A stretch of 35,106 nt of DNA from a virus (Duplodnaviria; Caudoviricetes): positions 1-35,106 of IMG/VR virus record IMGVR_UViG_3300035561_000135. The stretch is one strand, 5' to 3'. A program made the position numbers and the translations under genes. A model generated the notes under the pieces. It was given only the letters and a program-made list of their open reading frames with translations. It had not been told where the DNA came from and made no database searches. Of the stretch, positions 7,235-34,994 are shown piece after piece. Position 1 is the first letter of the stretch. Every line of letters begins with the position of its first letter.

Positions 7235-7316
7235 TTTGACACTAAGACAAACATTACTAAATTATCTTTTGTGTCTCATGTGAGACAATTAGCATGAGAG
7301 TACAAAAAGTGTCAAA
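7235..7316. promoter_or_regulatory. Lysis/lysogeny switch: opposed TTGACA boxes flanking a palindromic operator
   Basis: TTGACA plus at 7236-7241 with TAAATT at 7258-7263; TTGACA minus at 7315-7310; palindrome TGTCTCA-TG-TGAGACA at 7272-7287. Confidence 0.65.
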
Positions 7317-7362
7317 CATTTTTTTTACTTTTGTGAAAATTTAAAGAGTGCAGGGGGGTAAA

Positions 7363-7743
7363 ATGGTCGAGAAGCGTGTAGATAAGGAACTATGTGATAG
7401 AGTAAAAAAGATTAAAGAAAAACTGAGATTTCGAACAACGCAAGAAATGGCGGATTATTTTAAGGTAAGTAAAAGCTCGATTGACCAAGCATTTATTTAT
7501 AGGAAAAATCCCCCCAGGAAGCTTATTGATGGGTTAGTTAAAAAGGCAGAAGTAAATTACGAATGGTTAATAAGCGGTGAAGGTGAAATGTTTGATAAAT
7601 CAGCCGAAGAAGACAGCAATATTAATGTTTTATATGGGAAGGACGTAAAGAAGCTGATTGAAAGCAACCATCAGCTAACTGTAACGAATTCTAAAGTTGT
7701 GGAAGAATTACTGAGAATTTTAAAGGAGGAAGAAAAGAAATGA
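7363..7743 (+). CDS. CI-like XRE-family repressor
   Basis: HTH TTQEMADYFKVSKSSIDQ, signature VNYEWLISGEGEMF; divergent from early operon; no S24 peptidase domain visible. Confidence 0.85.
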   Translation: MVEKRVDKELCDRVKKIKEKLRFRTTQEMADYFKVSKSSIDQAFIYRKNPPRKLIDGLVKKAEVNYEWLISGEGEMFDKSAEEDSNINVLYGKDVKKLIESNHQLTVTNSKVVEELLRILKEEEKK

Positions 7744-7958
7744 TTGAGTTTGTAGCTGGAATTATATCTTTAATTCTTATTATAGTATTTCTTTTAATAT
7801 ACGTGCGATTAAACGGCATTTATAAGATCCTTCGATTTTTTAAAGAGCAGCATGAAATAAAGAAAAAGATGGATATGTATTGGACTTGTCCAAATTGTGA
7901 GACAAAGGTTCAAAACACAACTTATGAGTGTATAAATTGCGGATATAGATTAAAATGA
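7740..7958 (+). CDS. Membrane protein with C-terminal zinc ribbon
   Basis: N-terminal TM helix; WTCPNC...ECINCG; ATGA overlap with repressor. Confidence 0.8.
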   Translation: MIEFVAGIISLILIIVFLLIYVRLNGIYKILRFFKEQHEIKKKMDMYWTCPNCETKVQNTTYECINCGYRLK

Positions 7959-7984
7959 AATAGTTTTTTTTATCATGAATCATT

Positions 7985-8116
7985 ATGGAACCATCGATTT
8001 GGGATCAGATGTACAATTCAGACGGCGGTACCGGCGGGGCGGTATTATTTTTGTTAATGATAATTATGATATACATTTTGTCGGTAAATAGGAAGCGGGA
8101 TGATGAGAATAAATGA
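7985..8116 (+). CDS. Putative small membrane protein (43 aa; not in ORF track)
   Basis: Hand translation MEPSIWDQMYNSDGGTGGAVLFLLMIIMIYILSVNRKRDDENK; one TM plus charged tail; no clear RBS. Confidence 0.45.
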   Translation: MEPSIWDQMYNSDGGTGGAVLFLLMIIMIYILSVNRKRDDENK

Positions 8117-8440
8117 TTAGTTACAATATTTTTCTAAATCAATCTTAATCCACTTTTTATATTTTTCAATAATTGTTAAACCATCCTCAATAAGTTTATA
8201 AATTTTCCTGAGATATTCACATTTTAAAAATCCAATAACTTTTAAATTCTTATTATTTTTTAAACATTGAAAACTAACAGGTTTAAGTTTATGTCGGCTG
8301 ATATCTTTATCGAAATGAACATTATTGTTAATAAAACAATCATCTACCTTTTCAATCATTAATTTACCCAGCATGGAAAAAATTGGCAAAATAGCAGAGT
8401 AAAAAAACATTATCACAAAAATACAAAAATAATTTGACAA
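8117..8440 (-). CDS. AT-rich hypothetical ORF, possibly degraded
   Basis: 107-codon ORF on opposite strand, TTG start, no RBS seen. Confidence 0.3.
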   Translation of the reverse strand: MSNYFCIFVIMFFYSAILPIFSMLGKLMIEKVDDCFINNNVHFDKDISRHKLKPVSFQCLKNNKNLKVIGFLKCEYLRKIYKLIEDGLTIIEKYKKWIKIDLEKYCN

Positions 8441-8506
8441 AAATCTAATAATAAAAAATTCATCGCACAGAGGTAGGAATGAAATGTATGATGAGAAAAA
8501 TATTAA

Positions 8507-8553
8507 AGCCGGATTTTGAATGGGATAAAATCCATTCGGATTCGGTTTTTTTT
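8507..8553 (+). terminator. Intrinsic terminator-like hairpin in leader of replication operon
   Basis: AGCCGGATTTTGAATGG...CCATTCGGATTCGGTT ending in a T8 run (8546-8553). Confidence 0.7.
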
Positions 8554-8597
8554 ATTTCGCTTAAAATGATTTTGGGAAAAATTGAAAGAGGCAAAAT

Positions 8598-8798
8598 ATG
8601 AAGAACGAGTTAAAGACGATTCTGCGAAACATGGAACCAAGGCGTAATCTGAAATGGTTTTGGAATGAGTACATCCGGTTTATACGACCAGATCAAGAGA
8701 TTTGTTATACTTATTTCAGCAATATGATGAATGAATTTTGTGTAATGTGGCCGGAAATCGAAACAAAAATCAAAAAATTTATAAATGAAAACAAATAG
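8598..8798 (+). CDS. Small hypothetical protein, possibly HTH
   Basis: GAGG RBS; 66 aa; first gene of the rightward early operon. Confidence 0.7.
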   Translation: MKNELKTILRNMEPRRNLKWFWNEYIRFIRPDQEICYTYFSNMMNEFCVMWPEIETKIKKFINENK

Positions 8799-8894
8799 AT
8801 TAATCAGCGGGACAGTCTCTTTGCCAGGAGATTTCCGGACAGCCTTCCCTGCTGGATTACCGCTGAATAATTACAAACCTGGAAGGAGGTGATT

Positions 8895-9845
8895 ATGGCA
8901 CGACCGGCAAAGAACAATTTAGAATATTTCTCTCATGATAATAAAATGAGAAATGACCGGAAAATAAAGGCACTAAGGGCGAAGTTTGGTTTAACTGGCT
9001 ATGCTGTTTATTGCATGATGTTGGAATGTTTAAGTGAATCAGATTTGCTTATTATTGAGTGGAATGAAATTGAGATTGAATTAGTTTCCGGAGATTTTAC
9101 TATAGTTTCCGAAGAATTAATTCAGATAATTGACTATTGTTGTTATTTGGGATTACTAAATCGATCGAATGGCTATCTTTTTTGTAAAAAATTAGATATT
9201 AGAGCAGATCAGGTTTTTGGGAAGCGAGTTTACAATTTAGATCAATTACGAACCGAAAAAGGGATTAATGTGACGGAAACCCCTGTTTCCGAAGCGGAAA
9301 CTCCTGACTTGCAACCGGAAACCCCTATTTCAGAACAGAAAACTCCTGACTTGCAACCGGAAACTCCACAAAACAAAAGAAAAGAAAAGAAAAGTAAAGA
9401 AAAAGTTTATAATAAGACGAACATTAATAATAATAACAAATCTACGATAGATAAAATGACTAATAATAATTATATTAATAATAAAGGGCAAGTTGATCAC
9501 GATAATTCAAAATCAGCTGAACCTGATATCCCCGTTCGTTCGTCTAAAGAAAAAACTGTTTTTCAAATCAAGTGTGAATATCTCAGGAAGAATTTAACAG
9601 GGAAACCATTTAAACCAGATTCGGATAAAAAGGTTCGTATAGTAAATGACAAGACTCTCGATCGGATAATTGCCAAATACAGTATCGATGATTTATTGAA
9701 ATGGTATTTTTATACTGTTCATCAATCAGCGAAGAAAAAGATAAATCACTTTGCTTCATATTATTTTCTGTGCCTGGAACATAATTTTACGATCGATGAC
9801 AGTCTTTTGCATAAAATAAAAAAACAGATCAAGGGAGTAGCATGA
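8895..9845 (+). CDS. Replication initiator (DUF4373 / Lin1244-like N-terminal domain)
   Basis: MARP....LEYFSHD..MRNDRKIKALRAKFG..GYAVY; internal repeat linker then KRKEKKSKE; GGAGG RBS. Confidence 0.85.
   Translation: MARPAKNNLEYFSHDNKMRNDRKIKALRAKFGLTGYAVYCMMLECLSESDLLIIEWNEIEIELVSGDFTIVSEELIQIIDYCCYLGLLNRSNGYLFCKKLDIRADQVFGKRVYNLDQLRTEKGINVTETPVSEAETPDLQPETPISEQKTPDLQPETPQNKRKEKKSKEKVYNKTNINNNNKSTIDKMTNNNYINNKGQVDHDNSKSAEPDIPVRSSKEKTVFQIKCEYLRKNLTGKPFKPDSDKKVRIVNDKTLDRIIAKYSIDDLLKWYFYTVHQSAKKKINHFASYYFLCLEHNFTIDDSLLHKIKKQIKGVA
9274..9368 (+). repeat. 21-bp tandem iterons (putative replication origin)
   Basis: cggaaacccctgtttccgaag / cggaaactcctgacttgcaac / cggaaacccctatttcagaac / agaaaactcctgacttgcaac / cggaaactcca, followed by an A-rich tract. 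Confidence 0.8.
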
Positions 9846-10003
9846 TGGAAAAAAAATCTTATCGCTATCGCTGTGCAAGAACCGGCAGATATGTAACGAA
9901 AGAGTATGCAGAGAAAAACCCTGATACAACCGTCAGGATCACTGTGAGAAATAAAGGGAAAAGCAAAAACAAATTGGCAGAAAAACCTGGCTTTGATCAA
10001 TAA
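9842..10003 (+). CDS. Small basic protein (53 aa; not in ORF track)
   Basis: ATGA overlap, AAGGGAG RBS; MMEKKSYRYRCARTGRYVTKEYAEKNPDTTVRITV... Confidence 0.7.
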   Translation: MMEKKSYRYRCARTGRYVTKEYAEKNPDTTVRITVRNKGKSKNKLAEKPGFDQ

Positions 10004-10055
10004 TCACAAAAACCAAGAGATAATAAATTTTGTGAGGGATTATCAGGAGGATAAG

Positions 10056-10424
10056 ATGCAAATAAGTGAACTATGTAAAAAGGCACACAGATGTGCAAGC
10101 GATAAGGGATTTTGGAAAGAAGAAAGGGAGACAGGAACTCTTCTAATGTTAATCGTGTCTGAGCTGGGGGAAGCACTCGAAGCAGACAGAAAAAACAGAA
10201 ATGCAGCTACAATAACATTTAATGATCTTACGCAAAATCAAGGGATAGATTCTGATATTGCTTTTGAAGAATGCATAAAAGATTCATTTGAAGATGAACT
10301 TGCTGATGTGTTTATTCGGCTTGCTGACCTATGCGAAGGCAGAGACATAGACATAGAAACTTTTATTGAACTCAAAATGGAATACAATAAAACTCGTGAT
10401 TACAAACATGGTAAAAAATACTAA
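10056..10424 (+). CDS. MazG-like (all-alpha) nucleotide pyrophosphohydrolase
   Basis: AH..A..KGFW, LIVSELGEALEADRK, EDELADVFIRLAD, KMEYN..R.YKHGKKY; AGGAGG RBS before ATG at 10056. Confidence 0.88.
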   Translation: MQISELCKKAHRCASDKGFWKEERETGTLLMLIVSELGEALEADRKNRNAATITFNDLTQNQGIDSDIAFEECIKDSFEDELADVFIRLADLCEGRDIDIETFIELKMEYNKTRDYKHGKKY

Positions 10425-10484
10425 TGCCTATAACGCCCCTCTGCCCCGTAAACCGGGGAGAGCGGTGTTATTGAGGTATAAATA

Positions 10485-10763
10485 ATGCCAAAAAAAGCAA
10501 AGATAATCGAATTTCCAAAATTCACACAGGTCTTGAATGGGCATGTTTATAAATGTGAATCAATAGAAGCTGGTTTACCAGGGCATTTGAAGATAATCTC
10601 GCCATACGCAATATTCATTTGTGAAAAAGCAGTTGGAGTTTTTGACGTGAAAGATATTTCAGGAGCGTTCAAATTAGTCGATGATATAACTAACCAAGCC
10701 TACGTAACTTTTGGAATTGAAAGCAAAGAGACGTTGCAAATTATTCAATATGTGAGAACATAA
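10485..10763 (+). CDS. Hypothetical protein
   Basis: GAGGT RBS; 92 aa. Confidence 0.7.
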   Translation: MPKKAKIIEFPKFTQVLNGHVYKCESIEAGLPGHLKIISPYAIFICEKAVGVFDVKDISGAFKLVDDITNQAYVTFGIESKETLQIIQYVRT

Positions 10764-10949
10764 ATGAGATATACCTATTTAGGCGATAAGCTTACTGATC
10801 AATCATTGAAAGGAATTCAATGTAATCCGATTCGCAGAGCTGATGGGAAATGCATTGTTTCTATGCGGATGGGTTCTGCATTGGTTGAAACTGAAGATGG
10901 TCAAAAGATCATCGTAAACCGCAGAAGGTTAAGATTGAATGTCAAATGA
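10764..10949 (+). CDS. Hypothetical phage protein
   Basis: 61 aa, abuts upstream stop; YTYLGD.LTD..LKG..C..IRR.DGKCI. Confidence 0.7.
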   Translation: MRYTYLGDKLTDQSLKGIQCNPIRRADGKCIVSMRMGSALVETEDGQKIIVNRRRLRLNVK

Positions 10950-28529: not shown

Positions 28530-29435
28530 ATGAATTACATTTTATATATAGCAGGCAGCGGAGTGAGAGCTTTGAAATTGAAAGCAGTTGAAGGAGCTAT
28601 GACCAATGCCAACAGCGGATTAACAGCAGGAGAAGAATACATAGCAACCTGCAACGAAGGGGCAACTTCGATAAACTTTGAGCCGGAAGCGGGAAATGTG
28701 CCGGCAAGCGGAGTTCCAACCGGAAATTATCAGGTTTATAAAAGCGAAACTATTGAAGATCCGGTTTGGGATTTGATCGAAGGAATGGGATTGATCTCGA
28801 TAGCTAATAATGATCTGGGAACGATATTGGACGGCAAAGCTGCTGCGGATCATAATCATAACTCTGTATATGCGACAATCGGACATAATCATAACAGTGT
28901 ATATGCGACCATAACATCAGTCACAGCATTATCGGATGATGTAACGGCATTGGAAAACAGTTTATTGGCATTGATCACAGACATATCTTCCGGATATTCA
29001 TTAACTGCGGGAGCATTTCAAAGCAGCAGCAAGGTAAAGGTATATGCCCAGCGTCCGAATGTAACGATCGGCGGCGAAGAGATACCTCTTCTGGGATTAT
29101 TTAATTTTCAGTGGGTACTGAATAATATAGCGGATTGGACGGCGAACTGGGAAGGCATCAGCCAGACGCTATATCAGGGAGAGATTTCATCTTACAGCAA
29201 TGAGGTATGGATAACGAAACCACCGGAGGGCGACAGCATTTATAATAAACCTGTTTATCTTCATTTCAGGGTAAAGCTGAGCAATGCTGTGAGTCAGACC
29301 GGCTGGACTGAATTTTTGAATTTTGGAGAGATCAACGAACCGCATGATGTGACAGTGGAAAATCTGGCAGCGGCAATGCTGGAGAATACGGATCTGATGG
29401 AAGATTTGGCGAATAGAGTAGCATATCGTCTATGA
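28530..29435 (+). CDS. Tail fibre-like protein with tandem HxH motifs
   Basis: LDGKAAADHNHNSVYATIGHNHNSVYAT, then coiled coil VTALSDDVTALE. Confidence 0.65.
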   Translation: MNYILYIAGSGVRALKLKAVEGAMTNANSGLTAGEEYIATCNEGATSINFEPEAGNVPASGVPTGNYQVYKSETIEDPVWDLIEGMGLISIANNDLGTILDGKAAADHNHNSVYATIGHNHNSVYATITSVTALSDDVTALENSLLALITDISSGYSLTAGAFQSSSKVKVYAQRPNVTIGGEEIPLLGLFNFQWVLNNIADWTANWEGISQTLYQGEISSYSNEVWITKPPEGDSIYNKPVYLHFRVKLSNAVSQTGWTEFLNFGEINEPHDVTVENLAAAMLENTDLMEDLANRVAYRL

Positions 29436-29462: not shown

Positions 29463-29684
29463 ATGATGGATGTTAAAAAAATCGTGAAGTCAATAATGAA
29501 GGAAATGCAGGAGCAGCAGGAAATGGATATGGCCATCGTTCGAAAACACCAGGATAAAGTGCTTCGTTCGGAAGGGGCTGTGCTGGCATTGAGCTATTTT
29601 ATGCAGAAAGTGGACGAAGCAGAAAAGGCAGAGAAAAAGAATGATAATCCTAAAAAAACCGGCAACAAAGCTAAGCGAAGTTAA
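29463..29684 (+). CDS. Small coiled-coil protein
   Basis: AAGGAG RBS; 73 aa. Confidence 0.7.
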   Translation: MMDVKKIVKSIMKEMQEQQEMDMAIVRKHQDKVLRSEGAVLALSYFMQKVDEAEKAEKKNDNPKKTGNKAKRS

Positions 29685-29907
29685 ACCTGCTGTCAGACCT
29701 GTTCAGATCATCCGGCGAAGCAGGAATCGTTCCTGGGTTCTGCTTGATTCTCATCACAGCAGCGAGAAAGCAATTGATGAGGGGATTGCAAATATTGCGA
29801 TAGCCGAAGGGGAGGCGTTTCCGGAAAATCCGAAGCCGAATCAATTGTTTGTATATCAAGGAGATAATAAGAGAAAAGGGCTTTATAAATATGAGCCAGA
29901 CGAATAA
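29641..29907 (+). CDS. Small fibre-associated protein
   Basis: C-terminal GEAFPENP.PNQLF...GDNKRKGLYKYE resembles the C-terminus of the next gene. Confidence 0.65.
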   Translation: MIILKKPATKLSEVKPAVRPVQIIRRSRNRSWVLLDSHHSSEKAIDEGIANIAIAEGEAFPENPKPNQLFVYQGDNKRKGLYKYEPDE

Positions 29908-29922
29908 AACAGGAGGTACAAA

Positions 29923-30561
29923 ATGAGTGCATGGAAACAGTTGATCGATACGATCCAGATAGGTGATTTACCGGGTGATATTCCCAAAACGAAAATTTCA
30001 TCAACCGGACAGTGGCCGACCGGAGACATTCCAGACCTGAACGCCAGCAAAATTACAGCTGGAGAATTTCCCAGTGCCAGAATAGAAGATGGAGCTATAC
30101 TGGAAGCTAAAATCGGTGCCGGCGCTGTGACGGAAGCTAAGATCGGAGCCGGAGCGGTGACTGTGAACAAAATCGGTGCTCTGGCGGTAACTGCTGCTAA
30201 GATCGCAGCTGGTGCTGTGGAAGAAAATAAAATAGATACTGGTGCTGTAACAGAAAACAAACTCGGCGCTCTGGCGGTGACTGCTGCCAAGATCGCAGCT
30301 GGCGCAGTGACGGAAGATAAGATCGGTGCTCTGGCAGTAACGAATGGCAAAATAGGAGCCGGCGCAGTGAATGTGGCCAAGATGGATATCGATGCTGATC
30401 TGGATATGGGATTGAATCAAGTGGAAAATTTCGTTATTGAATTGGTTTCCTCGCTTCCAACGGTAACCCAGGAAGCAGCGAGTGACGGCAGGATAGTGAT
30501 GCTGACCACCCAAGATGGTGATAATAAGCCAGGTTTGTATCGTTACGAATATTCGGCGTAA
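29923..30561 (+). CDS. Fibre shaft protein with decapeptide repeats
   Basis: DIPDLNASKITAG motif and ten repeats of consensus IGAGAVT.AK; AGGAGG RBS. Confidence 0.85.
   Translation: MSAWKQLIDTIQIGDLPGDIPKTKISSTGQWPTGDIPDLNASKITAGEFPSARIEDGAILEAKIGAGAVTEAKIGAGAVTVNKIGALAVTAAKIAAGAVEENKIDTGAVTENKLGALAVTAAKIAAGAVTEDKIGALAVTNGKIGAGAVNVAKMDIDADLDMGLNQVENFVIELVSSLPTVTQEAASDGRIVMLTTQDGDNKPGLYRYEYSA
30082..30381 (+). repeat. Ten degenerate 30-bp coding tandem repeats
   Basis: IEDGAILEAK IGAGAVTEAK IGAGAVTVNK IGALAVTAAK IAAGAVEENK IDTGAVTENK LGALAVTAAK IAAGAVTEDK IGALAVTNGK IGAGAVNVAK. Confidence 0.92.
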
Positions 30562-30571
30562 GGAGGTATAG

Positions 30572-30886
30572 ATGGTGACAATTCGGATAGGACAAAAACC
30601 CTCGAAAGCTATGAATGTACTCGATGAAATATTGGATTATGACGACATATATTCCAACTCTAACGCAAAATTCAGAATGAAGAAACCTACCCTTGCACAT
30701 GAATACAAAGGACATTACAAATTCCTAACAGCCGATAAAAGTCCCAAGACAGTAGTTGTAATGCAATCCGCCACAAAGGATAACAAGAAACTGAAATATT
30801 CTCTGGATATCACAGAAGACGGCAAAAAAGCAGACGTGAAAGTTTTGGAAAAGCTTTTGGAAAAGCTAAAAAAAGAAGATGAGTAA
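30572..30886 (+). CDS. Hypothetical basic protein (possible fibre chaperone)
   Basis: AAGGAGGT RBS; 104 aa between fibre genes. Confidence 0.7.
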   Translation: MVTIRIGQKPSKAMNVLDEILDYDDIYSNSNAKFRMKKPTLAHEYKGHYKFLTADKSPKTVVVMQSATKDNKKLKYSLDITEDGKKADVKVLEKLLEKLKKEDE

Positions 30887-31514
30887 CTGGAAACAGATAT
30901 TGGACGGCGGAATCATTCCGCTGCCCAATGATGCTTATAAAAGCAATTTCCTGCGGTTAAATTCAGACGGCACAGATTATGAATTCGGACCTGTGGAAGA
31001 CGTTCGAGATGAAATTTTCAACAAAACAGCGATTGGCACTCCAACTTCTGCTGCGCAGGCGTTGGTCATAGATCTGGCAGATCATGGTGTTATTTCTGAT
31101 GCCCCGACCGCACGAGAAGCATTCTATGTAGAAGTGCTCATCACAATATATGCAGATCATTATGATTCTAAAACGATTCATTATTTACTTCATGCCCACA
31201 GAAAAGTAGTATTTAATGTTGTGTTCAATGACAGTTACGTTCCAAAACTATATCCGGCAGCACCCTCTGCAAACGATTTTGTGATTGATCACGGGGGGCT
31301 ATATTACAACTTGAACGATACGGATTTTGGCGAAATTCCGTTAGGAGAACTGCCGGTAACGGTGGGAGAGGACAGCGGTGATCTGTTCGTGCGAGTAAGC
31401 AACGCATTAGGCACGCTCACATCTGGTATGGATGATGAAATCCCTGTAGAACTATATTTCACGTATGAAGTGAAAATAACAAAAAATGATTTTGACACAA
31501 CTTATTCGCCATAG
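30879..31514 (+). CDS. Fibre tip-like protein
   Basis: N-terminal MSNWKQIL, fibre-type motif FLRLNSDGTDYEF, beta-rich acidic C-terminal domain. Confidence 0.65.
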   Translation: MSNWKQILDGGIIPLPNDAYKSNFLRLNSDGTDYEFGPVEDVRDEIFNKTAIGTPTSAAQALVIDLADHGVISDAPTAREAFYVEVLITIYADHYDSKTIHYLLHAHRKVVFNVVFNDSYVPKLYPAAPSANDFVIDHGGLYYNLNDTDFGEIPLGELPVTVGEDSGDLFVRVSNALGTLTSGMDDEIPVELYFTYEVKITKNDFDTTYSP

Positions 31515-31548: not shown

Positions 31549-31902
31549 ATGGCTACAAGATTAAATAAAAATTTCACGCATTTCAAAAATACAGGGGTGG
31601 ATATAGAATTTGTATTCAGCGATATTGCAGATCTTTCTGAAGCCAACGAAATTGAATGGGCTTTTGGCGTGGATGAAGATTCTGAGCCGCTTATAACAAA
31701 GTCCACAGCGGATGGGATAACTATAAATGAAGTTGATACTGAAAAATGCACAGTGAGATTAGATCCTGGTGATACTGAGACGCTGACGGCAGGATCCTAC
31801 TATCATCAGTTAAGATGGCAGGATGATGACATGGTCTGGCACGTTAGCGCTGCCGGCACGATGACACTGCTGAATACGATATTCGACATCGAGGGGGCGT
31901 GA
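31549..31902 (+). CDS. BppU N-terminal-like Ig-fold adaptor
   Basis: DLS.A....W......LITKS...GITI......TVRL.P.DT..L.AG.YYHQL; upstream of DGR target. Confidence 0.65.
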   Translation: MATRLNKNFTHFKNTGVDIEFVFSDIADLSEANEIEWAFGVDEDSEPLITKSTADGITINEVDTEKCTVRLDPGDTETLTAGSYYHQLRWQDDDMVWHVSAAGTMTLLNTIFDIEGA

Positions 31903-33371
31903 TGTCGCTGGGTGCATACAGTAAAACTAAAATTACGCTCGGAGCTGCTGGCGGCAACTATGCATTAGCAAAGATATACGGCATCCGAATAACAGTATCA
32001 GATGGCACGGTCACAAGAGTAGAAGACGCAGTCGGGCTGACGTTTAATGCTCATGCTGGATCGTATAATTCTGAATTGGTGAATGACTTTAACACATGTT
32101 ATCCCTGGAGTGCTATCCGGCAGGTGAAAACAGATAGCAACGGTAAAATATTAGCATATTTGGGCGATAATATTTATAGCGAAATAGAAGGCGAATATTA
32201 TACAAGGATCCCGCAGTTTTATTTTAGAGATTATGAGATTACGGAAGAAGAGGTTGATTATCGATATGTAATGATCTCAGATCGTCCATTGCCGAATTAT
32301 CAACCGGCTTTTCTTGATTCTTCCGGAAATAAAAAGCCATATGGTCTTTACGGTAGGACTCCAACGCATTGGGATGGCTCAGAGATGGTAACTAAACCAT
32401 CTTCTGTTACAAATAACAGACCGCTAAAAGTCAGTTATGCCTATGATGACTTCCTGACTGCTTTTGAAGCTAAAGGCGATGGCAATTGGACTGGATATGA
32501 CCTGATTGCCAGACATGCATTGTGGGCTCTTTCTGTGGTAGAAGCTGGTAGTTTAGATCATAAAACAAGCTGTGGTACTGGAATAAATTCTGGAATGCCA
32601 TATGGAAGTGGCAGCGAATATCAGGCTGTATCTGCAACGTCAGATGCAAACACAGTAACGCTTTCAGACTCTCCGTATTATGCAGAAGGAATGCTGGTAC
32701 AGGTAGGTAGTTCGTATTCCAACAACAGCGTTGCAGCTGATCGATATATTACAGATGTGACAGACAATTTGGATGGCACACAGACCCTTACACTGTCCGG
32801 CGATCCATTTAGCGTGAGTATTGGCGATTATTGTGTTACTTGGGGACAGCCAGTCCCCGAAGAACAGATTGACGCCCTAAATGGCGAAAGTGGGTATATT
32901 ACACAGTTTGGCAGTCAGAACAGATCACACGTTTCTTATCGGGGAATCTGGGATTTGTGGGGGAATATTTGGCAATGGAATTACGGATTTATTCGATATG
33001 ACGGTGTCTATTATATCTCCACCCAACCTTCCTATTATAATATAGGAGGAACTTTCGATCCCAGAGCGGAAACAGGCTGGACAGAAATATCTGGCACTGG
33101 ATATTTGGATAACGGCTACCAAAAAACCAGAAAACCACTAACAACCAATTTTGGTATAGTTGATTATCTTACTGAAACTGGCGGTGGAGCTGGCAGCAGC
33201 ACGTTCTACGCTGCCTATCTCTACAATTATAATTCGAGCTACACTGGAGTCCGTGTTCTGCTCGTGGGCGGTCGCTGGGGCCTTGGGTCTAACGTTTCGC
33301 CCGTGTGCGCGTATGGTCACTATGGGCCGGGTAGCTCGCACTTCAGCCTCGGGGCTCGCCTCATCCGATGA
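31899..33371 (+). CDS. DGR target protein: receptor-binding fibre with CLec-type fold
   Basis: YRGIWDLWGNIWQW motif; C-terminal VGG.W...G.R variable region matching the downstream template repeat. Confidence 0.92.
   Translation: MMSLGAYSKTKITLGAAGGNYALAKIYGIRITVSDGTVTRVEDAVGLTFNAHAGSYNSELVNDFNTCYPWSAIRQVKTDSNGKILAYLGDNIYSEIEGEYYTRIPQFYFRDYEITEEEVDYRYVMISDRPLPNYQPAFLDSSGNKKPYGLYGRTPTHWDGSEMVTKPSSVTNNRPLKVSYAYDDFLTAFEAKGDGNWTGYDLIARHALWALSVVEAGSLDHKTSCGTGINSGMPYGSGSEYQAVSATSDANTVTLSDSPYYAEGMLVQVGSSYSNNSVAADRYITDVTDNLDGTQTLTLSGDPFSVSIGDYCVTWGQPVPEEQIDALNGESGYITQFGSQNRSHVSYRGIWDLWGNIWQWNYGFIRYDGVYYISTQPSYYNIGGTFDPRAETGWTEISGTGYLDNGYQKTRKPLTTNFGIVDYLTETGGGAGSSTFYAAYLYNYNSSYTGVRVLLVGGRWGLGSNVSPVCAYGHYGPGSSHFSLGARLIR
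33255..33366 (+). repeat. DGR variable repeat (VR) including the 3' IMH region
   Basis: 112-bp ungapped match to 33455-33566 with 19 mismatches, 18 opposite TR adenines. Confidence 0.97.
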
Positions 33372-33381
33372 GTTCTGGGGG

Positions 33382-33406
33382 TGCAGGGGGCGAGCAGCCC
33401 CTTGCA
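33382..33406 (+). promoter_or_regulatory. GC-rich hairpin downstream of VR (DGR target-recognition element)
   Basis: TGCAGGGGGC-GAGCA-GCCCCTTGCA, 10 bp after the target stop codon. Confidence 0.8.
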
Positions 33407-33454
33407 AAAAAAAAAAAAGAGAAAAATAATGATAAAGGTACTTTTAGACGAATG

Positions 33455-33566
33455 GTTCTGCACGTGGGCGGTAACTGGAACAATGGGTCTAACGTTTCGC
33501 CCGTGTACGCGAATGGCAACAATGGGCCGGGTAACTCGAACATCAACATCGGGGCTCGCCAAATCC
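33455..33566 (+). ncRNA. DGR template repeat (TR)
   Basis: In VR frame reads VLHVGGNWNNGSNVSPVYANGNNGPGNSNINIGAR, with 10 AAY codons. Confidence 0.95.
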
Positions 33567-33676
33567 TTTAAAAATATGAAGTCTAAAAGAATACCTCCGA
33601 AAGGAAAATATGCTAACAAAAACCTGCCGGTAGGCCGAATATCGGGACGAAAGCTGGTGAGCATAAAGGATGAAAT

Positions 33677-34723
33677 ATGAGATCATGGAAAAACGTTAGA
33701 CTCGAAAGGATTGCCACTTTAAGCAATGCAAAAAGGGCAAGGCATGAGGCAGGCAGAGGTAAGCGCAACAGAAGCCATGTAAAAAGATTTAATGATGATT
33801 TGAAGCTTATGAAGATAATTGAAGATATTAAATCTGAAAATTATAAACCTCAAGAATTGCGAATAAAAAAAATATGGGACAAGGCTTCTCGAAAGGAAAG
33901 AATTATATCTTGCCCTGCCTTCAGGGATCAAATTGTACATTGGATGATAATGAATATTTTGAAACCTCATTTTGAACGCCATATCATCCAACATGCTGTA
34001 GCCAATATTCCAGGTAAAGGTTTAGAATATGGCAGAAAACTTTTAAAGCATTGGGCACATAAAGATAAACATGGCACAAAGTGGGTTGTAAAAATGGATA
34101 TTCGCAAATACTATCCGAGCATCGATGTGGAAATACTTCTGAAACAACTATCAAAACATATTCAAGATAAAAGAGTAATTGAATTGATCCGATCAGTGCT
34201 AAGTGTTTCTGAAGGATTAACGCTTGGCTCTTATTTTAACCAGTGGGCAGCAATTTTTTATTTATCAGATTTTGATCATTATATAAAAGAACAGATCAGA
34301 TGTAAATATTATCTCCGGTATGTGGACGATATAATTATGTTTTTCCCAAGCAAAAAAAAAGCAAAAAGAGCTGTTTTAGAATTAGAAAAAAAGCTGAATA
34401 ATTTGAAATTAGTTATAAAAAAAACAGGACCCGGAGCATTACAAATATATAAGTTTAAAGATAGATTTATAGATGCTCTGGGTTATCGAACTTATCGAGA
34501 TGGTAAGCAAACTCTTCGCCGAAGAAATTACCTGACCATAAAAAGGCTTTATAATAGAATAAAGAAAAACGGCTGCTGCCGGAGGCAAGCTCTTGCGATA
34601 CTTTCCAAACGAGGATTGCTGGTACATTCTAATTGCAATTTGCTATTATCAAAAATTGACGAATTGATCAATACTTGTAACATAAAAGGGATAGCTTATG
34701 AAAAACATTATCAGCAAATATGA
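33677..34723 (+). CDS. DGR reverse transcriptase
   Basis: 348 aa, basic; KERII..P.FRD, KMDIRKYYPSID, GLTLGSYFNQ, YLRYVDD, IDALGY; no maturase or endonuclease domain. Confidence 0.97.
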   Translation: MRSWKNVRLERIATLSNAKRARHEAGRGKRNRSHVKRFNDDLKLMKIIEDIKSENYKPQELRIKKIWDKASRKERIISCPAFRDQIVHWMIMNILKPHFERHIIQHAVANIPGKGLEYGRKLLKHWAHKDKHGTKWVVKMDIRKYYPSIDVEILLKQLSKHIQDKRVIELIRSVLSVSEGLTLGSYFNQWAAIFYLSDFDHYIKEQIRCKYYLRYVDDIIMFFPSKKKAKRAVLELEKKLNNLKLVIKKTGPGALQIYKFKDRFIDALGYRTYRDGKQTLRRRNYLTIKRLYNRIKKNGCCRRQALAILSKRGLLVHSNCNLLLSKIDELINTCNIKGIAYEKHYQQI

Positions 34724-34994
34724 AAAAGTGCAGGTATATGAGCTAAAAAATGGGCTCTATACTGTGGAACTAAACGAAAATCCTGTAGAAGTGACGCATG
34801 AAGATGAAGATGGGAATATTGTTACTAATTATGAGGTTGATTCCTATCGAATAGAAGAAGTGCAAAAGAAGTCGCTGGCAAGTGCCAAAGCAGAATATTT
34901 GAAATCCAGTGCAGCTTCTATCGCAGCTATAAAAAAGCAGGCAGCATATAAATGCAAAGAAAACGAAATAAATAATATACCAATAAAGAGGTGA
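34698..34994 (+). CDS. Hypothetical protein overlapping the RT 3' end
   Basis: 98 aa; beta-rich acidic N-half, helical basic C-half. Confidence 0.75.
   Translation: MKNIISKYEKVQVYELKNGLYTVELNENPVEVTHEDEDGNIVTNYEVDSYRIEEVQKKSLASAKAEYLKSSAASIAAIKKQAAYKCKENEINNIPIKR

Follow-up and report, generated by a model that had tools for sequence, protein, structure and literature searches.

Our interest in this locus was aroused by the unusual ends of three small viral genes: how could proteins that each seem to carry only a part of one fibre domain be joined, and would they together build one fibre? The genes lie in what is here called the window, the whole stretch of 35,106 bases that was analysed, which is an entire linear IMG/VR record with a completeness estimate of 46%. 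A Pfam/PHROG scan found a terminase, an SPP1-type portal, a major capsid protein and a tape measure protein encoded in the window; the scanned ORFs gave no match to a sheath protein, so that the virus looks like a siphovirus. Its best capsid matches are from a faecal phage (35%) and from Riemerella and Porphyromonas phages (~29-30%). The cassette formed by the genes A, B, X and C has tail-end genes on one side and a diversity-generating retroelement on the other; promoter and terminator scans gave results at chance level only.

Genes of the cassette

All features of the cassette lie on the + strand. Gene A (29641..29907) encodes 88 aa, ends QGDNKRKGLYKYEPDE and is the predicted anchor; its C-terminus (~29776-29904) is the putative acceptor half, or socket, of what we call the joint domain and aligns weakly with the C-domain profile of the B family described below (hhalign 15.5%, E 0.0017). 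Gene B (29923..30561), preceded by the ribosome-binding site AGGAGG (29911..29916, -11.4 kcal/mol), encodes 212 aa (MSAWKQLID...QDGDNKPGLYRYEYSA) and is the predicted middle subunit, with a donor strand, a shaft and an acceptor. Its putative donor strand, or plug, is MSAWKQLID (29923..29949), of which M1, W4 and L7 are invariant in all six family members. The shaft (30091..30354) consists of nine GAVTxxKI-type decapeptide repeats at residues 57-144 and matches the fibre families phrog_892 ('tail fiber protein', E 1.2e-15) and phrog_21412 (E 1.5e-13), and the acceptor domain (30361..30558) stops six residues past LY, where unsplit relatives run on into a Trp strand. Between B and C lies X (30572..30886), an ORF of 104 aa that has a strong ribosome site of its own (-11.4 kcal/mol) and possibly encodes an assembly helper. 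Gene C (30879..31514; 211 aa), the predicted tip, opens with the putative donor strand MSNWKQILD (30879-30905), after which a beta-rich domain comes; its homologue P0122 (71%) retains the donor strand. A further ORF, s (29463..29684), encodes 73 helix-rich residues upstream of A. Its membership of the cassette is uncertain and it may be an assembly helper; it matched no Pfam or PHROG family above the cut-off, and no counterpart was seen upstream of A in the two other cassettes, L052 and vir530, described below. The sequence-only reading that drew attention to the locus had placed all five ORFs at these positions with these termini and frames, and our analysis agrees with it, as it does on the 15-nt, in-frame gap between A and B and on the out-of-frame relation of B to C with X in between.

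Among the 93 ORFs of the window (ATG starts, at least 60 aa, six frames), the plug start M-x(1-2)-W-x-x-[LI]-[LI] is found in two, B and C, and the socket end L-Y-x-[YF] plus 1-6 residues likewise in two, A and B. The per-ORF background of ~6e-4 for the plug motif and 1.6e-3 for the socket motif overstates their rarity, since both motifs were defined after the genes had been seen; the proper test is given by homologues from outside the window. AlphaFold2 monomer models of B and C were of low confidence (pLDDT 36 and 39, respectively). A fold search with the C model returned phage tailspike and fibre chains as its best rows at Z 5.0-5.5, values that are weak and within the range of common arrangements (top row Z 5.5, rmsd 5.3, 120 aligned), and Foldseek gave no match to this model at E<=0.001.

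The joint domain and the point at which it is cut

A profile was built from the last 66 residues of two proteins, B and P0002, the latter being the one full-length homologue of B. Searched against 1.84 billion proteins, it matched 15, the two queries and 13 others. One of the 13 was an unrelated repeat protein and was rejected. In 10 of the 12 related matches the joint domain is whole and its LY-type motif is followed by an aromatic strand (Trp; Phe in P0126); in the other two, P0131 and P0137, it is cut exactly as in B. To judge from the homologues, this is a small fibre domain of ~50-65 residues. In the unsplit copies 6 or 8 residues separate the LY-type motif from Trp (25 copies in nine proteins, found with a search pattern that demanded Trp), while the split proteins end 4-7 residues past LY and have Trp at position 3-4 of their start. 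This spacing, taken with the ends and starts of the split proteins, places the cut in the turn ahead of the last predicted beta-strand. The sequences show A and B to end with the front part of the domain, the socket, and B and C to begin with its missing Trp strand, the plug; from sequence, too, we infer that the segments are beta-strands of one sheet, and likewise the order of the strands.

A second profile of four sequences, run over 4,103 candidates, matched six proteins, of which four were in the query and two were new. All six full-length members of the B family are split at the same point, starting M-x(1-2)-W and ending just past LY; they fall into three sequence groups, and their shafts differ in sequence and length (150-212 aa). 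Among the outcomes that the sequence-only reading had counted against itself were terminal motifs that are not conserved and homologues that are usually fused. The motifs hold throughout the family, and fusion proved to be the usual state of the domain and of none of the six B-type proteins.

No Pfam family covers the joint domain, and for five of the six B-family proteins no locus was found. Locus searches with the B family and C in viral contigs, metagenomes and genomes gave no true relative and some shaft-repeat matches, L052 among them; a capsid-based search gave two short contigs, both without the cassette region. In tblastn searches of phage records, neither the B C-domain nor A had a match, and P0002 and P0131 returned shaft matches only. 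Searches of PDB sequences with our profiles A3 and A6 and with P0134 and P0136 yielded nothing relevant, the rows of a 'Cake' propeller being rejected as summed 2.7-bit repeats. The literature searched, which took in a minority of the subscription papers, contains no description of this split domain.

The same gene order in two unrelated viruses

The order acceptor, donor plus acceptor, small ORF, donor plus tip was seen in three viruses: the virus of the window and two unrelated ones, that of the IMG/VR locus L052 and vir530 (BK063674). The predicted division into an anchor, a subunit with both ends and a tip had been drawn from the window; across the homologous loci searched, its order recurs in L052 and vir530, just as the split point is kept in the B family.

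L052 entered the analysis via a shaft match to P0002 and was chosen from a 5.1-bit match among 176 loci. An acceptor/donor regular expression run over 177 loci found L052 only and missed the window's own pairs, so that its yield is no census. L052 encodes a portal and a major head protein, and its cassette (9361-9735 / 9752-10126 / 10132-10383 / 10380-10793) is downstream of the capsid gene. Gene 1 is a 124-aa ORF with the socket at its end; gene 2, the middle gene or B, is also a 124-aa ORF, starts (ACG)TTWKKILW and has the socket at its end; gene 3 is an 83-aa ORF; and gene 4, a 137-aa ORF, starts MTTWKKLVQ and has a beta-rich body. The ACG start of B is 6 nt downstream of a GAGGTGA site. 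An out-of-frame ATG stands 5 nt upstream of this ACG (9747-9760); the ACG may be a rare start, or one base may be wrong in the assembly. L052 also holds a second socket/plug pair (7314-7925 / 7929-9371) with a different plug, MVYKQVHRLLD; the 480-aa protein encoded at 7929-9371 has a B-like shaft start and an internal unsplit joint domain.

With the middle protein of L052 as the query, one full-length match was obtained among 30 records, that of vir530 (36% over 98%). According to its depositors, vir530 has a Methanosarcinales host and a double-jelly-roll capsid; the 'DJR fold' is the depositors' label, which our PDB and Pfam searches neither confirm nor contradict. Its 40 CDS include none that bears the name of a terminase, portal or tail protein. 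Its cassette (7798-7968 / 7971-8357 / 8369-8647 / 8651-) begins with a 56-aa ORF whose socket-like end was recognised by eye only and is absent from the 12 matches of at least 9 bits given by the seven-sequence profile described below. Gene 2 (B) is a 128-aa ORF that starts MTAATTKKFAF and has the socket at its end, gene 3 is a 92-aa ORF, and gene 4 starts MTAATTKKFAY, with a body like that of the L052 tip (24%, pairwise E 8e-4). The vir530 plug has Thr in place of the others' Trp.

The direct link from the window socket to the B proteins of L052 and vir530 is weak (hhalign 47.5% and 7.9%, respectively), and the probable homology of the window family with these cassettes rests on a bridge, the unsplit protein P0129. 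P0129 was matched by the window-family profile (E 1.4e-5, 1.84 billion proteins) and resembles both the end of vir530 B (41%, pairwise E 3e-9) and the end of L052 A (44%, pairwise E 1e-6). A seven-sequence profile made from window and L052 stretches gave vir530 B as its best outside match among 16,033 frames (25.6 bits), and the next were five unsplit copies. In all three cassettes a small ORF stands between B and C; these ORFs have no detectable similarity to each other.

Plugs, reading frames and ribosome sites

Within a genome, the plugs of B and C are identical at 5, 5 and 9 of 10 positions (residues 2-11; window, L052 and vir530), and across genomes at 1-4 of 10; these values are to be read against the 23 rows, 15 of them at exactly 5, that reached a 5/9 N-terminal match among 4,099 neighbour frame pairs, many of them involving spurious frames. 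Beyond the first 7-10 residues the plugs of B and C diverge. Synonymous differences were found at 7 of the 17 shared degenerate codons of the plugs, and the stretches of DNA upstream of B and of C bear little likeness to each other (6-8 of 20). Together these two results point to selection on the plug peptide rather than to a very recent duplication. As for the sockets, those of A and B are 23% identical in alignment A6, differ in loop lengths and could be selective for their partner.

A and B are in the same frame in one of the three cassettes, that of the window, and B and C in none of them. Ribosome-site energies were scored against a consensus 16S tail. In the window, the value given above for B compares with -3.3 kcal/mol for A, +1.1 for C and -10.0 for the major capsid gene. 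The B site scored -12.1 in L052 (A -0.9, C -4.1) and -9.4 in vir530 (A -6.7, C -4.0). Among the four genes, B has the strongest site in all three cassettes (in the window it ties with X), near or above that of the capsid gene, and the weakest site belongs to C or A. In L052 and vir530 the strong ribosome sites of B may be offset by its start codons, ACG and TTG, respectively. C overlaps X in two of the three cassettes, and translational coupling between X and C may raise C output.

Proposed assembly and its alternatives

Phage fibres with a decapeptide shaft are parallel homotrimers, and A, B and C would each form such a trimer. The three N-terminal strands of a distal trimer would supply what is missing from the three sheets at the C-terminal end of its proximal neighbour, with the strand polarity at the joint being that of the unsplit chain. 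Since B and C carry matching plugs in each genome, either would fit the B socket, and the chain would grow by B until C caps it. The B:C supply ratio, which would come partly from ribosome-site strength, would set the mean fibre length, with X serving as a non-structural assembly helper. A would bind the particle (capsid, neck or tail) and C a surface ligand. Judged by their sequences, these proteins are very likely linked by a strand-completed joint of some kind; that they form a strand-completed, head-to-tail fibre A-(B)n-C, with B repeated, is a reading that we hold with less assurance and still think probable. Given the decoration-protein match of GMA4 Orf66, an unsplit relative discussed below, and a vir530 without annotated tail genes, a capsid or neck position is as plausible for the fibre as a position on the tail.

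The split is real and conserved and is no artefact. The in-frame A/B junction of the window would suit one long fibre gene that was broken by a sequencing error or is joined by stop readthrough or frameshifting. However, in L052 and vir530 the frames of A and B differ, as do those of B and C in all three cassettes; B has its own strong ribosome site, and all six family proteins share their start and end points. Since A and B are in frame in the window only and B and C nowhere, readthrough, frameshifting and sequencing error do not explain the pattern; the sequence-only reading had dismissed readthrough and a single fission, rightly as it turns out, and we find a broken gene scarcely credible. 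Circular permutation within the protein, by which the N-strand of B folds into its own C-domain, or a three-stranded domain that is stable by itself, agrees with the presence of both halves in B. It would leave the socket-only A and the plug-only C unexplained in three genomes, with the halves of B set apart by shafts of varying length and sequence, and strikes us as highly improbable.

Two further arrangements retain docking between the proteins. If B and C both plugged into A, whether into one copy or several, and the C-domain of B were a free end knob, the identical plugs would be accounted for directly, and other phage gene pairs do share N-termini (MATVTK-type; L002, L136, L140, L153). 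Such branching or alternative docking seems improbable in view of a B C-terminus that is cut at the same point as that of A in all three cassettes, a B without a tip-like domain and a gene order A-B-x-C that is kept. The split-point and gene-order evidence fits equally well with a fixed fibre of three segments at 1:1:1, in which the joints are strand-completed and the sockets selective (A takes B, B takes C). The differing sockets of A and B and the divergence of the plugs after their first residues speak for it, as do the shaft repeats, which vary B-family length and could tune the fibre without polymerisation. What it leaves unexplained is the tracking of B and C plugs within genomes, with synonymous changes, and the placing of the strongest ribosome site on B in every cassette, though tied with X in the window; moreover, different plugs would suit a strict A-to-B-to-C order better, and the second pair in L052 does have a plug of its own. 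We regard the fixed fibre as unlikely and favour the fibre with B repeated.

A broader generalisation of the repeated-B fibre comes close to an even chance in our judgement. It would hold that a portable four-gene cassette, common to tailed phages and a tailless archaeal virus, encodes a ruler-less polymeric fibre of trimeric rods joined by triple strand completion; that fibre length follows from the B:C expression ratio; that shafts and tips are exchangeable; and that the plugs are genome-specific and orthogonal, with two in L052.

Comparison with known fibres and pili

In chaperone-usher and type V pili, the N-terminal strand of one subunit completes the fold of the previous subunit. By analogy, strand completion and the roles of anchor, shaft and tip would be common to these pili and the present proteins. 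Unlike pili, the present system is viral, and its trimers would probably exchange three strands simultaneously, where the Ig-fold monomers of pili exchange one. No usher, pilus chaperone or pilin family was found among the 29 window ORFs scanned with Pfam.

The unsplit relatives, among them Gordonia phage GMA4 Orf66 ('head decoration'), ChisanaKitsune gp120 ('tail fiber'), P0129 and P0134, have the Trp strand following directly and keep the joint domain in one chain, whereas A, B and C divide it between proteins. P0134, like P0129, was among the matches of the first profile. The joint domain is homologous to the N-terminal domain of Orf66 (hhalign 85%, E 6e-6). In Orf66 (L181 2992-4101) this unsplit N-terminal joint domain is followed by a YadA-stalk match and then by a C-terminal part that matches PDB 9NX3, a 'capsid decoration protein' (E 1.8e-28), on which a literature search found no relevant paper. 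The nearest named ESM Atlas look-alikes of B residues 147-212 are Mtd_N (PF18454) and PTL_trimer (PF26696), both small beta-rich fibre domains, at a feature score of 0.84 and a TM of 0.49 that are both under the tool's bar. PF18454 had no match in the window ORFs (E<=0.05) or in the L052 record (E<=1), and hhalign of the joint domain against BPP-1 Mtd 1-60 gave 0.1%.

The closest plan is that of the neck fibre of cyanophage A-1(L), in which gp82 is the anchor, ~14 trimers of gp81 follow one another head to tail and gp80 is the tip, a 1:14:1 ratio of anchor, repeat and tip; recombinant bead chains were seen as well (PMC10966104). Its genes are adjacent and in the order anchor, repeat, tip, as are those of the present cassettes in three genomes with their predicted roles. 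The trimers of A-1(L) are joined via N-terminal beta elements, as those of the present proteins would be, and the multiplicity of the middle subunit, which would apply to B, was measured in A-1(L). The A-1(L) protein gp81 is a globular bead joined by N-terminal beta-hairpins, in contrast to B, which would be a repeat-shaft rod with a short plug taken from a normally unbroken domain, and the present cassettes have an extra small ORF between middle and tip. No homology to gp81 or gp82 was detectable with our profiles, which are shallow and may miss a remote kinship of fold (hhalign of A4 against gp81 1.4%, of A6 against gp82 2.3%). The plan proposed by the sequence-only reading thus has a precedent in a phage, in proteins that are not detectably related to those of the window.

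If the repeated-B fibre is true, A-1(L) is not alone in its anchor/repeat/tip fibre, and the plan has arisen a second time out of another domain, through a cut at one turn of a common fibre-joint domain. It would also provide a sequence rule, a C-end socket and an N-end plug, by which many small 'hypothetical' virion genes could be read as parts of one long fibre. It would raise the question of what limits the length of a fibre that has no ruler, and trimeric proteins might be stacked with short orthogonal connectors of this kind.

Neighbouring observations

Residues ~21-36 of A (29701-29748) contain QIIRRSRNRSWVLLD, a stretch that to the eye resembles the final two strands of the joint domain, and A itself may plug into an upstream partner. 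A candidate for this partner is the 301-aa fibre-like protein encoded at 28530-29435 (phrog_19961 tail fibre, E 0.001), which has His-containing repeats; an unsplit-like stretch was seen by eye near its residues 60-85 and aligned poorly with the sockets.

The diversity-generating retroelement spans 31899-34723. Its target gene (31899-33371; phrog_5302 tail protein) carries the variable repeat (33255-33366), which is 83% identical to the template repeat (33455-33566), with 18 of the 19 mismatches at template adenines; the reverse transcriptase is encoded at 33677-34723. No match to Avd was found among the window ORFs scanned (Pfam/PHROG), and 34698-34994 carries no assignment. A 117-aa ORF (31549-31902; phrog_1084, E 0.0019) overlaps the start of the target gene and is possibly the adaptor of the second fibre to which that gene would belong.

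Adjacent fibre-like genes that share a MATVTKDF-type N-terminus were seen in four other loci (L002 2200-4544, L136 4648-7251, L140 1793-4395 and L153 7641-10242). In these pairs 6-8 of the nine N-terminal residues are identical and the bodies are not, which possibly reflects another plug-type docking system; a similar pair is present in L115 (12184-12977).
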